A stretch of DNA of 35,354 nucleotides from Escherichia coli (GTDB lineage Bacteria > Pseudomonadota > Gammaproteobacteria > Enterobacterales > Enterobacteriaceae). This document shows, piece after piece, positions 1 to 35,354 of this stretch (positions are counted from its first letter, which is position 1; every line of letters begins with the position of its first letter). A program made the translations under genes and the position numbers. The notes beneath the pieces were generated by a model. The model was not told the origin of the DNA. It made no database searches and was given only the letters and a program-made list of their open reading frames with translations. Where the stretch lies: assembly GCF_003334355.1 (NCBI RefSeq), contig NZ_QOWP01000035.1; one strand, 5' to 3'.

Positions 1-75
1 GGAAAAACGAGTATTTTTAGTCATCCTGTTTACCTCTTTCTCAGGGAGTTTAGTCTCCAGGATTTCCGGGGCGGT

Positions 76-624
76 TCAATAATAGCTCGCGTGAAGTTCT
101 TCCCCATCGAATACCACTGTATTACACAAGAAAGTGACATCGGCATCTTCAATACCAAGATAACTGCACATATTTTTTAAATAATCGCTTATATTTTTTT
201 CCCAGCCCATCTGGACAAATGATTCTTTGTCTCCTCCAACCAGCGCCACCCAACGAACTTTATTGAATGGTAATTTGTGCCCATCTCCATAAGCCAGCCC
301 ATTATTCCATACTCTGTCAATATATCCTTTTAGCATTGCCGGGAAGCTGTACCACCAGAGAGGAAAAACCACCACTAACGTGTCATGTTCAAGCAGCTCT
401 GAATAAAGCTGATGAACCTCTGGAGAATAACGTTTATCCATATTCTTCCAGTCTGGTTCATCTTCCGGCGTCATCACTGGGTTGAAATTACGCCGATATA
501 AATCGAGTTCCGTCACCTGTATTTTCCGCTCCATTGCCCGCTGATGGATCGCATCAGCAATATGTGCGGTCAATGAATCATGACGAGGATGGGCCCATAC
601 CAAATAAATACGTTCAGACTGCAT
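76..624 (-). CDS. ycaK: NAD(P)H oxidoreductase-like flavodoxin-fold protein (KefF/MdaB family), 182 aa
   Basis: ORF track 76..624; ATG at 624 preceded by GGAGG 7 nt upstream; in-frame stop 6 codons upstream rules out N-extension; N-terminus MQSERIYLVWAHP recognised as YcaK. TGA at 76-78; C-terminal length versus reference not verifiable. Confidence 0.85.
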   Translation of the reverse strand: MQSERIYLVWAHPRHDSLTAHIADAIHQRAMERKIQVTELDLYRRNFNPVMTPEDEPDWKNMDKRYSPEVHQLYSELLEHDTLVVVFPLWWYSFPAMLKGYIDRVWNNGLAYGDGHKLPFNKVRWVALVGGDKESFVQMGWEKNISDYLKNMCSYLGIEDADVTFLCNTVVFDGEELHASYY

Positions 625-723
625 AATTTTACCTCCACGTTAAGTTCTGGAGCGCACTTTACGCAGGCGGCATAATCCTGTAAACGTGATGATTCAGGAT
701 GAGTTAATGAAGGATTTTCACTA

Positions 724-1632
724 ATGCGGATGAATATGTCTGACTTTGCCACTTTCTTTGCCGTGGCCCGTAATCAAAGCTTTCGTGCAGCGGGCGATGA
801 GTTAGGCTTATCCTCGTCCGCCATTAGCCATAGTATTAAAACACTGGAACAACGTCTTAAAATTCGCTTATTCAATCGGACAACCCGAAGCGTATCGTTA
901 ACGGAAGCGGGTTCTAATCTCTATGAACGATTGCGCCCAGCTTTCGACGAAATTCAGATCATGTTAGATGAGATGAATGATTTTCGTCTGACACCGACAG
1001 GAACGCTCAAAATCAATGCCGCCCGGGTAGCTGCACGTATATTTTTAATGTCTTTACTGGTTGGTTTCACACGTGAATATCCTGATATTAAAGTCGAGCT
1101 CACAACTGACGACTCTCTTGTCGATATCGTCCAACAGGGCTTTGACGCTGGCGTTCGACTTAGTTGCATCGTCGAAAAAGATATGATCAGCGTGGCGATC
1201 GGCCCGCCAGTGAAATTATGTGTAGCAGCAACGCCAGAGTACTTTGCAAGATATGGCAAACCCCGCCATCCTCATGATCTGCTTAATCATCAATGTGTTG
1301 TTTTTCGTTATCCCAGCGGCAAACCTTTCCACTGGCAATTTGCAAAGGAGCTGGAAATTGCTGTCGCAGGAAATATCATTCTGGATGATGTTGATGCTGA
1401 ACTGGAGGCCGTTTTGATGGGTGCTGGTATCGGGTATCTGCTCTATGAACAGATCAAGGAGTACCTTGATACTGGTCGTTTAGAATGTGTACTGGAAGAC
1501 TGGAGCACAGAGCGTCCAGGCTTCCAGATCTATTATCCAAACCGCCAGTATATGTCCTGCGGCTTGCGCGCATTTCTCGATTATGTAAAAACGGGTCAGA
1601 TCTGCCAGAGTCAGCGTCACCGACCACAATAA
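724..1632 (+). CDS. ycaN: LysR-family transcriptional regulator, 302 aa
   Basis: ORF track; N-terminal HTH (SSSAISHSIKTLEQRL) and LysR substrate-binding domain; divergent from ycaK; ATG at 724. Confidence 0.9.
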   Translation: MRMNMSDFATFFAVARNQSFRAAGDELGLSSSAISHSIKTLEQRLKIRLFNRTTRSVSLTEAGSNLYERLRPAFDEIQIMLDEMNDFRLTPTGTLKINAARVAARIFLMSLLVGFTREYPDIKVELTTDDSLVDIVQQGFDAGVRLSCIVEKDMISVAIGPPVKLCVAATPEYFARYGKPRHPHDLLNHQCVVFRYPSGKPFHWQFAKELEIAVAGNIILDDVDAELEAVLMGAGIGYLLYEQIKEYLDTGRLECVLEDWSTERPGFQIYYPNRQYMSCGLRAFLDYVKTGQICQSQRHRPQ

Positions 1633-3063
1633 TTATTTACTATTCGCTTTACGCGCCAGCAGCGGGAATATCAGTCCTAATCCTACCAGCACAAACGGCG
1701 TTGCAACATTCAGCGCCAACTGGAAGGTCCACTCTGCAGTGAAGGCTTCCATTTTCGGGAAGATCCCCGTCAAACAGGCAAAGGCGGTAAAGGCAAAACA
1801 CCAAATCCCGACGGTCATTGCCAGAGGCTTATTACGAATAAAGACATATTCTGGTTTATATTTCTGCGCCAAGCGAACGACTGCAATAAATGCAACAAAT
1901 ACCCATAAATAACGCAGCGGCATCACTACCGAATTAAGGTTCAACAGCCATTTATAGAGATTGTTCATATCACCAATGCCGAGAGTCGGCAGCATAATCA
2001 GAATCGCCACCAGTACCAGGGTCAGAAAATAGCCATTAACGGGCGTACCAGAAGCGTTGGTACGACATAAACTGGCTGGAATATATTTGCTGTCAGCATC
2101 ACCTAATAGCACTTTAAGCGGGGCATCAATCGAGAATACCAGCGCCGCTACTTGTCCCAGGGTATTCGCAATGGCGTAAATCACCATTAAAGTATTACCC
2201 ATGTTGTAATACTCGCCCAGCTTCTGAAAGGCGTAATACTGACCGTTGGTCATTAAGTCATCCGGGATATTACGCGAATCAAACATCATCCCCATCGCCA
2301 GCGAGCCCAGAATGGCACAAACCGCAACCATCACCGCCAGGCATAACATCCCTTTTGGAAATTCTTTTCCTGGGTTGCGCGTTTGATTAACGTAAGGAGA
2401 AATCTTCTCTGCTCCGCCAACCGCGAAAACCAGCATTGAAATAGTGGTAATGTAGGTAAAGTCGATATGAGGAATGAACGTTTCCCAGGTAATGTTTGTG
2501 GTCGCAATATGCACTTCAGTAATTGCAGGCGCGGTTACCGCCATCGCCACATACAGGAGCGACATAACAAACATAGCAATCCCTGCCACAGAACCGACGA
2601 TTTTCAGCGATTTCATACCGCGTGAAGCAACCCACATAAAGAAGATAAACAGCACCAGCGTTAACCCCTGTAACGCTACGACTGAATATTCTTTGATTAG
2701 CGAACCGTCGCCTTTCATCGCCCAACCGAGCGCAATCAGAATTGCCTGGGGTTTTTGTGCCAGATAGGGAATATGCACCACCCAGTAGGTCCACGCGGCG
2801 AGATAAGCCAGTCCGGGTCCCATCGTGTGTTTAATCCAGGTACTGACCCCGCCCTTCCCATCTTTGAAGGTCGAGCCTAACTGACCAACAATTAGCGCAT
2901 AAGGTGTGAAATAGAGTGCAAAGATAAACACCCATGAAAAAACAACCACCAGCCCCTGGTTGGCATAGTTATTAACAACGTTGCCAAAACCCCAGACAGT
3001 GATAAAAGACATCAGCGCAATGTTGTACCATCGCAACTGTTTTTCCTGAACATTCCCAGCCAT
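1633..3063 (-). CDS. ycaM: APC-family amino acid/polyamine transporter, 476 aa
   Basis: ORF track 1633..3255 trimmed to ATG at 3063 (MAGNVQEKQLRWYN), which has an AAGGA SD; multi-pass membrane protein; stop abuts the ycaN stop. Confidence 0.85.
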   Translation of the reverse strand: MAGNVQEKQLRWYNIALMSFITVWGFGNVVNNYANQGLVVVFSWVFIFALYFTPYALIVGQLGSTFKDGKGGVSTWIKHTMGPGLAYLAAWTYWVVHIPYLAQKPQAILIALGWAMKGDGSLIKEYSVVALQGLTLVLFIFFMWVASRGMKSLKIVGSVAGIAMFVMSLLYVAMAVTAPAITEVHIATTNITWETFIPHIDFTYITTISMLVFAVGGAEKISPYVNQTRNPGKEFPKGMLCLAVMVAVCAILGSLAMGMMFDSRNIPDDLMTNGQYYAFQKLGEYYNMGNTLMVIYAIANTLGQVAALVFSIDAPLKVLLGDADSKYIPASLCRTNASGTPVNGYFLTLVLVAILIMLPTLGIGDMNNLYKWLLNLNSVVMPLRYLWVFVAFIAVVRLAQKYKPEYVFIRNKPLAMTVGIWCFAFTAFACLTGIFPKMEAFTAEWTFQLALNVATPFVLVGLGLIFPLLARKANSK

Positions 3064-3224
3064 AGACAAATCCTTCGCCAAAATTAAAGGGGCATCTGTA
3101 AAACGAGGGATTATGCGCGGCAAATAAGAAGTGCGGAAATAGCGAAATGCAAAATTATAACCTGCTGCACATTTTATTTTTAAACGAATAAAATTTGGAA
3201 TAAAGCAAGTCAGATAGAAGAAAC

Positions 3225-3262
3225 AAAAAAGCAGAGTGTGAAACAGTAAGTTCACACTCTGC
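3225..3262 (-). terminator. Rho-independent terminator downstream of ycaD
   Basis: 12-bp inverted repeat gcagagtgtgaa (3231-3242) / ttcacactctgc (3251-3262); A6 at 3225-3230 gives a U-tract on the minus strand immediately 3' of the ycaD stop. Confidence 0.75.
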
Positions 3263-3272
3263 TTGAATTCAT

Positions 3273-4421
3273 TTACACGTGAGCAACGGGTTTCGGCGTA
3301 TGACCGGCGTTGCGCAGCAGCATCAGCAAATAGATAAACGATACGCTGGCGATCATGATAAACAATAAATTATCGGAGAAATTCTGCATTAGCATAGCGG
3401 TAAATGACGGGCCAAGCAGACTTCCCACAGTATAGCTCAACAGTAAGGCCTGGTTCATCGCCACCAGTTGATGATGTTCAACTTTCTCGCAAGCCCATGC
3501 CATCGCCACCGGATATAGCGTAAAGCCAGCGGCACCGAGGATGAATAACGCTGGGGCCATCGCCGCCTGGCTAAGCATCGCGATACTGCCGAGAATGACG
3601 ACAAAGACCTGAACACGCAACACCAGCAGTCGACCAAACTTATCCGCCAGACGTCCAATCGGCCATTGTCCAAGGATACCCGCACTGACCAGTACCGCCA
3701 TCCAGAAACCAATGCTGGCATTGCTCACCCCTTTGTGATTGAGGTACAGCGGCATCAGGCCATATAGAGATCCCAGAACGATTCCTGAGATAATGCAGCC
3801 ATTCACGCCAAGCCGCGCCTGACGGAGTTTTAGCATTGACGTAATTGACGTCGAATCATGGTTTTCAGCCTGCTGATTCAGCACACGCGTAAACAACAGC
3901 GGTAAGATCCCTGCCAACGTCAAACCTGTAACCCACGGCAATACGGACATCAGCTCGGTTGAAACTTTGCTGACCAGTAACTGGCCTAAAAACGTTCCCA
4001 CGTAATAAACCATCATATACGCAGCAAGCAAACGCCCACGGTTACGTGACGTCCCACTGCACATCAGCGCGCTCTCAACAACCACCCAAATCATGGCACA
4101 GCCGACGCCCGCGACAAAACGCCAAGCCAACCAGCTCCAGAATCCAATCATCAGGCCAAGGCCGGCACAGCCAGCGGCAAAAATGAAGGAGGCCAGATAA
4201 TAGCTGCGGTTAAAGCCAATGCGCTTAATGACATACCCTGTCAGCAATGTACCGACAAGGTTGCCGGTAAAATAGGATGAGCTGACAACGCCTACCTGCC
4301 ATGTGGACATGTGTTCCTGGGCGAGCCAAAGCGGCACGAGTGTATTTAACACCGCAATCGCCAGAGTCAACAAAAGCAGGCCAGACAGCAAAAGCATGAC
4401 AGGCCGGGTATACGTGGACAT
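3273..4421 (-). CDS. ycaD: MFS transporter, 382 aa
   Basis: ORF track; 12-TM-like hydrophobic profile; ATG at 4421; sequence recognised as YcaD. Confidence 0.9.
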
Positions 4422-9333: not shown

Positions 9334-9503
9334 AATGGCTCACTCAAGCTTGCTCACGATTGATTCCAGTAACAAACCGTATTGTGTAATTATTTCTATA
9401 GCAGCTCGCTATATAGGCTTGTATACATCGAATAATTTGAAAATCAAAGAGATAGGTAGATTTTCACTCGAAAGTAGTATTACGTGTAAGTGAGGAGTAA
9501 TTA

Positions 9504-9517
9504 TTGTTCGGTATCAA
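9504..9517 (-). promoter_or_regulatory. FNR box of the dmsA promoter (TTGAT-N4-AACAA on minus strand)
   Basis: Plus strand ttgttcggtatcaa = minus TTGATaccgAACAA, close to the FNR consensus TTGAT-N4-ATCAA; about 170 bp upstream of dmsA ATG; dmsABC is a known FNR-activated anaerobic operon. Confidence 0.6.
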
Positions 9518-9525
9518 AGGGAGAC

Positions 9526-9551
9526 AAAAAAAGCGCCCGCAGGCGCTTTTT
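9526..9551 (-). terminator. Rho-independent terminator downstream of serS
   Basis: aagcgcc-cgca-ggcgctt hairpin flanked by A6 and T5; on the minus strand the hairpin is followed by a U-run, 21 bp after the serS stop. Confidence 0.75.
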
Positions 9552-9571
9552 AGATTCAGAAAAATTGGGTA

Positions 9572-24316: not shown

Positions 24317-24404
24317 GGTGAGGTGTCCGAGTGGCTGAAGGAGCACGCCTGGAAAGTGTGTATACGGCAACGTATCGGGGGTTCGAATCCCCCCCTCACC
24401 GCCA
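24317..24404 (+). tRNA. serW: tRNA-Ser (anticodon GGA), 88 nt, class II with long variable arm
   Basis: GGTGAGGTGTCCGAGTGGCTGAAGGAGCACGCCTGGAAAGTGTGTATACGGCAACGTATCGGGGGTTCGAATCCCCCCCTCACCGCCA: 7-bp acceptor stem, anticodon loop CTGGAAA, T-loop GGTTCGAATCC, encoded CCA. Confidence 0.95.
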
Positions 24405-24447: not shown

Positions 24448-24652
24448 CATTTTATCTGTCTGTACGGCAGTGAACATGGTGGGTGGAGTATGTTACCTGT
24501 GAATTTCTAAGCTGCCTGTACGGCAGTGAACGCCAACTTTCACAGCCTTTGCAAGATTGTTCCTTTCTAAGCTGCCTGTACGGCAGTGAACGTTCGCTGC
24601 AACCGCTAGCCAAGACGGTAGGTTTTTCTAAGCTGCCTGTACGGCAGTGAAC
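24448..24652 (-). CRISPR. Orphan type I-F CRISPR array: 4 repeats (one degenerate), 3 spacers, no adjacent cas genes
   Basis: Perfect 28-bp repeats at 24504-24531, 24564-24591, 24625-24652 (plus strand TTTCTAAGCTGCCTGTACGGCAGTGAAC; minus strand GTTCACTGCCGTACAGGCAGCTTAGAAA, the I-F repeat with CTGCC/GGCAG hairpin); degenerate terminal repeat 24448-24475 keeps the 3' 16 nt; spacers 28, 32 and 33 bp; repeat orientation puts the leader on the clpA side. Confidence 0.9.
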
Positions 24653-34356: not shown

Positions 34357-35052
34357 ATGTTCAGAAAATTAGCAGCTGAATGTTTTGGTACTTTCTGGCT
34401 TGTTTTTGGTGGCTGTGGTAGTGCTGTACTGGCCGCAGGCTTCCCGGAATTAGGCATTGGTTTTGCCGGCGTGGCGTTGGCGTTCGGTCTGACCGTTCTG
34501 ACGATGGCCTTTGCTGTTGGTCATATTTCTGGTGGTCATTTTAACCCGGCGGTCACTATTGGTTTATGGGCTGGCGGACGTTTTCCGGCAAAAGAAGTCG
34601 TTGGCTACGTAATTGCCCAGGTTGTCGGCGGTATTGTTGCAGCGGCGCTGCTGTATTTAATTGCCAGTGGTAAAACGGGTTTTGACGCGGCAGCCAGCGG
34701 TTTTGCTTCTAACGGTTATGGCGAGCATTCACCAGGCGGTTATTCCATGCTTTCCGCGCTGGTAGTTGAACTGGTATTGAGTGCAGGTTTCCTGTTGGTG
34801 ATCCACGGCGCAACCGACAAATTCGCGCCGGCAGGTTTTGCGCCGATCGCTATTGGTCTGGCCTTAACCCTGATTCACTTAATTAGTATTCCGGTGACTA
34901 ACACTTCTGTTAACCCGGCGCGCAGCACCGCGGTTGCTATCTTCCAGGGCGGCTGGGCATTAGAACAACTGTGGTTCTTCTGGGTGGTGCCAATTGTCGG
35001 CGGCATTATCGGTGGTCTGATTTACCGGACCCTGCTGGAAAAGCGTGATTAA
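34357..35052 (+). CDS. aqpZ: Aquaporin Z, 231 aa
   Basis: ORF track 34351..35052 (GTG-initiated) trimmed to ATG at 34357 ([19 protein letters not shown]); two NPA motifs (HFNPAV, VNPAR). Confidence 0.95.
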
Positions 35053-35061
35053 TTAACGCAG

Positions 35062-35091
35062 AAGGCCTGGCGTAATGTCAGGCCTTTTTTT
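35062..35091 (+). terminator. Rho-independent terminator downstream of aqpZ
   Basis: aaggcctg-gcgtaatgt-caggcctt hairpin followed by T7. Confidence 0.8.
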
Positions 35092-35175
35092 AAGATGTTG
35101 TTATATGTTGATTCATCATCTTGTTGCGCTCCTTTCATGAGCTAAGCAACATATTGCCACTGGCGCAAGGAGCGC

Positions 35176-35207
35176 GCAGGGGGCGGCCAATCGCCGCCGC
35201 CCCCTGC
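35176..35207. repeat. GC-rich perfect 12-bp inverted repeat (gcagggggcggc / gccgccccctgc), 8-nt loop, inside a roughly 130-bp high-GC block
   Basis: Perfect inverted repeat seen directly; flanked by a second inverted repeat gcgctcctt (35126-35134) / aaggagcgc (35167-35175); base composition far above the window average; resembles E. coli GC-rich intergenic palindromic repeats (boxC-like), family not verified. Confidence 0.5.
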
Positions 35208-35354
35208 ACCCCCGGGCTCTGGCGAACAAAATCGCCGCTGCGCGGTGCCCTCGACTTATCCCTTACGGCTACCGGGTCGGGCGCGAGGTAACATATATGG
35301 ACGCTCCCGGAATGCAATGCTTTCTTCAGTTATGTAATAAAACGGGTAGGTGCA

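Follow-up and report, generated by a model that had tools for sequence, protein, structure and literature searches.

Truncation of ycaK by a probable IS1203/IS629 insertion at the end of an Escherichia coli draft contig

Introduction

What brings the ycaK gene to its stop, 78 nt from the end of a draft contig of Escherichia coli, and what is the reading frame that stays open behind that stop? The preliminary description of this DNA left three possibilities side by side: a YcaK protein complete at 182 residues, a gene cut short by a nonsense change, or a gene followed by a short downstream open reading frame. In the literature, ycaK appears in candidate panels of nitroreductases and within a conserved ycaN-ycaK-ycaM cluster, and YcaK itself is uncharacterised; the literature search for ycaK returned nothing on the C-terminus of the protein. 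The stretch analysed here, referred to as the window, is the whole of draft contig QOWP01000035.1 (35354 bp, assembly GCA_003334355.1; base-for-base match over the first 6624), and therefore no extension beyond its edges is possible.

Results

The ycaK reading frame and its reference

The ycaK open reading frame lies on the minus strand from 624 to 76 and, according to the open reading frame list and its translation, encodes 182 amino acids before a TGA at 78 to 76. The same frame then continues through 25 stop-free codons down to base 1, with the translation TAPEILETKLPEKEVNRMTKNTRFS. Both the position of this stop and the frame open for at least 25 codons to the window start had been given in the preliminary description, and translation confirms them. 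A stretch of this length is not unusual by itself: 783 of the 2681 stop-to-stop intervals in all six frames of the window (29%) reach 25 codons or more. What goes beyond chance, and is absent from the preliminary description, is the match of bases 1-78 to the end of an IS element, at 78 of 78 positions.

In the K-12 derivative NZ_CP062244.1, ycaK is annotated with 591 nt and encodes a protein of 196 residues (WP_001190363.1) ending ...EELHASYYQSLLSQVRDMVDAL. The residues 1-182 encoded in the window (...HASYY) are identical to residues 1-182 of K-12 YcaK, and the idea of a protein complete at 182 residues is contradicted by a reference of 196 residues that ends ...SYYQSLLSQVRDMVDAL. Among complete genomes PSS-12 is the nearest to the window; it shares 100% identity with positions 79-24000 and encodes a YcaK under the same 196-residue accession, WP_001190363.1, with pflA convergent 81 nt beyond ycaK. 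Since this nearest relative carries the 196-residue protein, the ancestral state of the lineage is the full-length gene. The features at this edge of the window are the following.

1 to 78, minus strand: IS1203/IS629 (IS3 family), left end of the element, truncated where the contig ends (78/78 to an annotated IS1203)
1 to 24, minus strand: first eight codons of orfA, MTKNTRFS, in the same frame as ycaK (the annotated IS1203 CDS start at 1824 of the reference locus corresponds to window 24)
33 to 38, minus strand: AAGAGG, a Shine-Dalgarno-like motif putatively serving orfA of the IS, with 8 nt between it and the ATG (24 to 22) at which the transposase is annotated to begin
54 to 78, minus strand: IRL, the 25-nt left terminal inverted repeat of IS1203/IS629, TGAACCGCCCCGGAAATCCTGGAGA, identical to the reference arm 1854-1878
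76 to 78, minus strand: TGA, stop of the truncated ycaK and bases 1-3 of the IS terminal inverted repeat (chromosomal homology ends at 79; terminus of the IS reference)
79 to 81, no strand: putative target-site duplication of 3 bp, plus-strand ATA and codon 182 (TAT), predicted from the ATA of the reference copy
79 to 624, minus strand: ycaK codons 1-182, the chromosomal part of a truncated NAD(P)H oxidoreductase gene (open reading frame list, translation, chromosome identity)

Homology to the chromosome breaks at base 79

Window positions 1-1000 were compared by megablast with 5,426 complete E. coli genomes. Among 13 sampled diverse chromosomes, the matches begin at base 79 (base 78 in one of them) and run at 98.8-100% identity to base 1000; in none of these 13 does a match extend leftward past 79/78. 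Positions 79-1000 are 100% identical to chromosomes of the K-12 type and to others in which ycaK and ycaN are annotated, and a pairwise alignment with K-12 is perfect rightward from base 79 and unrelated leftward. On the other side of the break, bases 1 to 78-83 match loci that carry the annotation IS3 family transposase or IS3-like element IS1203 family transposase. Identity to these loci reaches 100% (E about 1e-32), and they are present on many chromosomes and plasmids in thousands of E. coli copies. The joint between ycaK and the IS is absent from the complete genomes: in the megablast search, 0 of the 5,426 complete genomes cover at least 80% of positions 1-160. With an 80-nt probe spanning the insertion site, the region was detected in 3,333 complete genomes, 3,331 of which are continuous through it. 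The window itself contains no 20-mer from the tail region of K-12 ycaK. The ycaK/ycaN region (79-1000) has a megablast match in about 3,315-3,333 of the 5,426 complete genomes; either the ycaK-ycaN pair is not universal in E. coli, or it is too divergent in the remaining genomes.

The foreign sequence matches the left end of IS1203/IS629

As IS reference we used a copy annotated as IS1203 in O157:H7 strain BB24-1 (NZ_CP038402.1, locus L002). This copy measures 1310 bp and has an inverted repeat of 25 nt at each boundary (569-593 and 1854-1878 of the locus); its termini read TGAACCGCCC, and ATA stands on both flanks as a 3-bp target duplication. Window positions 1-78 are identical at 78 of 78 positions to 1801-1878 of the locus, the end of the reference copy (1878) corresponding to window 78; a few bases past the terminus the two sequences diverge. 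The arm present in the window, the left one, starts with TGAACC and has the 5'-TG...CA-3' ends of the family. The identity to a named IS1203 copy is high, over a length of 78 nt that leaves the isoform unfixed (IS1203, IS629 or IS3411). The IS terminus does not recur elsewhere in the window.

IS3-family elements carry overlapping orfA and orfB genes which are joined by a programmed -1 frameshift and encode a DDE transposase. The IS1203 transposase CDS of the reference locus is annotated with such a programmed frameshift (orfA, then the orfAB product), and its translation starts MTKNTRFSPEVRQRAIRMV; the eight orfA codons on the contig match the start of this CDS. The preliminary description had pointed to an AAGAGG followed by an ATG on the minus strand, and both are found, at 38 to 33 and 24 to 22. 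On this alignment, the TGA that ends ycaK reads as the first three bases of the left inverted repeat of the IS, the 17 codons after it as the leader of the IS, and the Shine-Dalgarno-like AAGAGG with its ATG as the translation start of orfA. The idea of a short downstream open reading frame therefore stands in so far as the motif and the ATG are a genuine start, and falls in so far as they belong to the orfA of an IS transposase and to no chromosomal gene. That orfA and ycaK share a frame is a coincidence.

Predicted consequence for the YcaK protein

The 182-residue product has two recorded Pfam domains, PF02525 (Flavodoxin_2) and PF03358, and retains its identity as YcaK and as a Flavodoxin_2 protein; the full length of 196 residues with its C-terminal helix is not encoded in the window, the tail QSLLSQVRDMVDAL being missing. 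In the PDB, the sequence matches are to NAD(P)H quinone reductases and to KefF; they cover mostly residues 2-120, KefF alone reaches about residue 183, and the missing tail therefore has no direct counterpart in a solved relative. The 196-residue YcaK was modelled by AlphaFold2 from the single sequence only, with moderate confidence (mean pLDDT 68, pTM 0.69). The model alternates strands and helices and closes with a terminal helix at 179-195, with a pLDDT of about 74-78 in the last two blocks; a single-sequence model suffices to place this helix, not to judge stability. As modelled, the truncation would remove 13 of the 17 residues of the predicted helix, and we suppose from this loss that the 182-residue YcaK is probably destabilised or inactive. 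Loss of ycaK may be tolerated in E. coli, because only 3,333 of the 5,426 complete genomes match this part of the gene by megablast and because a second truncating allele, Q183*, circulates in several genomic contexts.

An independent allele ends YcaK at the same residue

A large assembly collection lists the exact 182-residue protein in 110 blocks. In all nine of the other loci examined (L003-L011), it arises from a CAG to TAG change at codon 183; the 3' end of ycaK is otherwise normal there and is followed by pflA. Among the 3,333 complete genomes that hold the region, the Q183* allele occurs in one, E. coli GDSC2239PM (CP136018.1), the match of which starts at base 78 because the T of its TAG equals, by chance, the T of the IS TGA. 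A codon-183 nonsense truncation thus exists in nature, but it is not the cause in the window. The preliminary description had also considered that reference orthologues might end at the same position: the rare Q183* allele does, whereas the reference and 3,331 of the 3,333 complete genomes do not. In four of the Q183* loci (L005, L006, L009 and L010), a P2-like prophage with genes for an integrase, Cox, RepB and a GpA-type replication protein lies directly past pflA and replaces pflB, and pflA is called there at 265 residues versus 246.

Contig boundaries and other features of the window

The contig breaks 78 nt into the IS, presumably because a short-read assembler could not pass a multicopy element. 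At the opposite end, positions 34601-35294 are 100% identical to PSS-12, downstream of aqpZ, and the final 60 nt (35295-35354) diverge from PSS-12; they carry on in strain SMS-3-5, about 210 nt ahead of a transposase gene of the IS110 family. Both ends of the contig thus seem to lie at mobile elements.

Within the window, three CRISPR-DR4 repeats of 28 nt each, about 60 nt apart, form a short CRISPR array at 24504-24652 on the minus strand, adjoining a tRNA gene at 24317-24401 on the plus strand. The enterobacterial sRNA family STnc130 has a full-length match at 9424-9558 on the plus strand, with 140 bits versus a gathering score of 55. The ycaM open reading frame (1633-3255, minus strand) gives 540 residues from a GTG versus the 476 of the annotated APC-family permease, an upstream in-frame extension of the same gene.

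Discussion

We propose, with a probability of about 93%, that ycaK was truncated in this strain by insertion of an IS1203/IS629 element after codon 182, and that the open reading frame behind the stop is the transposase gene of that element. An IS3-family IS1203/IS629 element would have inserted directly after codon 182 (TAT), with its left end and its transposase gene co-oriented with ycaK. The terminal repeat, TGA-ACCGCC..., lies in frame and stops translation 14 codons early, giving a 182-residue YcaK without its final 14 residues (QSLLSQVRDMVDAL), whereas the uninterrupted gene would run on into ...CAGTCGTTATTATCTCAGG without the IS. A simple insertion would leave the 3'-terminal 45 nt of ycaK, followed by pflA, past the far end of the IS, and would have duplicated the 3-bp TAT, the second copy of which would lie past that far end, off the contig. 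IS629, with its isoforms IS1203 and IS3411, is reported to produce target duplications of 3-4 bp and to have no strict target sequence (PMC3271280). It can therefore be predicted that, beyond the contig end, the right end of the IS (...CCGGGGCGGTTCA) is followed by TAT or TTAT and by CAGTCGTTATTATC..., then pflA; in the sense of ycaK, this far junction would read ...CCGGGGCGGTTCA, TAT (or TTAT), CAGTCGTTATTATCTCAGGTACGGGATATGGTAGATGCACTATAA and then the 3' end of pflA. Simple insertion is the most economical reading, in which the right end of the IS, the duplication and the final 45 nt of ycaK are placed off the contig.

The strongest competitor, which we nevertheless regard as unlikely, is that the IS marks the edge of a larger IS-mediated deletion or inversion, by which the 3' end of ycaK, and perhaps pflA-pflB, would have been lost or moved. 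The far side of the IS lies off the contig, as such a rearrangement would allow, and rearranged copies are common, given that matching duplications on both sides accompany only 21 of 47 IS629 copies in O157:H7 genomes (PMC3271280). Against this, the rearrangement has no positive evidence behind it; the clean IS terminus stands next to ATA, the triplet duplicated at the reference copy, which fits a fresh transposition; and pflA and pflB are core genes of anaerobic metabolism.

It is tempting to ask whether a cut after residue 182, reached by two independent routes, has some meaning: loss of the C-terminal helix may be selected, leaving an altered or regulatory-free enzyme, or transcription of ycaK into the co-oriented, in-frame orfA may drive the transposase. 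We consider this highly improbable.

An assembly artefact is slightly less credible still. The joint would then be chimeric and ycaK intact in the organism; only 78 nt do separate the joint from the contig end, a position more prone to assembly errors, and the contig breaks off at its opposite end, too, after about 60 nt of variable sequence near an IS110-family element. However, graph assemblers normally produce contigs with short runs into repeats, for which reads across the junction are required, QOWP01000035.1 is on record in 2 samples, and a join exactly at an IS terminus is not expected of a random chimera.

A point nonsense mutation in ycaK, with ordinary ycaK-pflA intergenic DNA behind it, has next to no likelihood left. 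The nine Q183* loci do show a CAG to TAG change at codon 183 with the identical protein, and the complete genome CP136018.1 carries the same allele; but the stop in the window is TGA and not TAG, the 75 bases past it are unlike the ycaK 3' end and 100% IS1203, and the window is devoid of the K-12 tail 20-mers, so that such an origin is rejected on the alignments with K-12 and with the Q183* loci. The earlier suggestion of a nonsense truncation was right about the truncation and not about its cause, which would be the terminal TGA of IS1203/IS629, with no base substitution. Equally negligible is the view that 182 residues are the natural length in this lineage and the reference merely longer: although the KefF match (PDB 3eyw) extends no further than about residue 183 of YcaK and the conserved core is largely kept, it is rejected on the 196-residue protein of PSS-12, identical at 100% over 24 kb, and on the 3,331 of 3,333 complete genomes continuous through codon 183, the end of the protein being formed by foreign IS sequence.

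Insertion of IS1203/IS629 after codon 182 has practical consequences for annotation, and little significance beyond it. The kind of event and the element are both already known, and the disruption of ycaK at this draft-contig end is nothing out of the ordinary. In annotation, ycaK should here be described as a gene interrupted by IS1203/IS629, neither as a complete 182-residue protein nor as a nonsense allele, and the proper label for the open reading frame at the edge of the contig is a partial transposase of the IS3 family. The identical truncated protein has different causes in different genomes, and clustering at the protein level hides the mechanism. The insertion in ycaK is also a strain-specific marker, which could be used for typing in the same way as IS629 sites in O157:H7.

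Comparison with known systems

Compared with the reference IS1203 of 1310 bp, only the left 6% of the element is present in the window, and the flanking triplet ATA is common to both. IS1203/IS629 is found in E. coli O157:H7 and O111 and in Shigella, and the insertion site in ycaK is absent from the 5,426 complete E. coli genomes. The chromosomal backbone of the window resembles ATCC 8739 and K-12 commensal strains, unlike O157:H7. At the ycaK locus, the neighbours are shared with K-12, with ycaN divergent, followed by ycaM, ycaD, ycaC and dmsCBA, and the downstream pflA of K-12 falls off the contig. Relative to K-12 YcaK (b0901, WP_001190363.1), the product in the window is without residues 183-196. 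The Q183* allele of CP136018.1 yields the same 182-residue product through a single base change, with no IS and independently of the event in the window. Within the Flavodoxin_2 family, the relatives of YcaK are KefF and the quinone reductases of the NQO1/NQO2 type.
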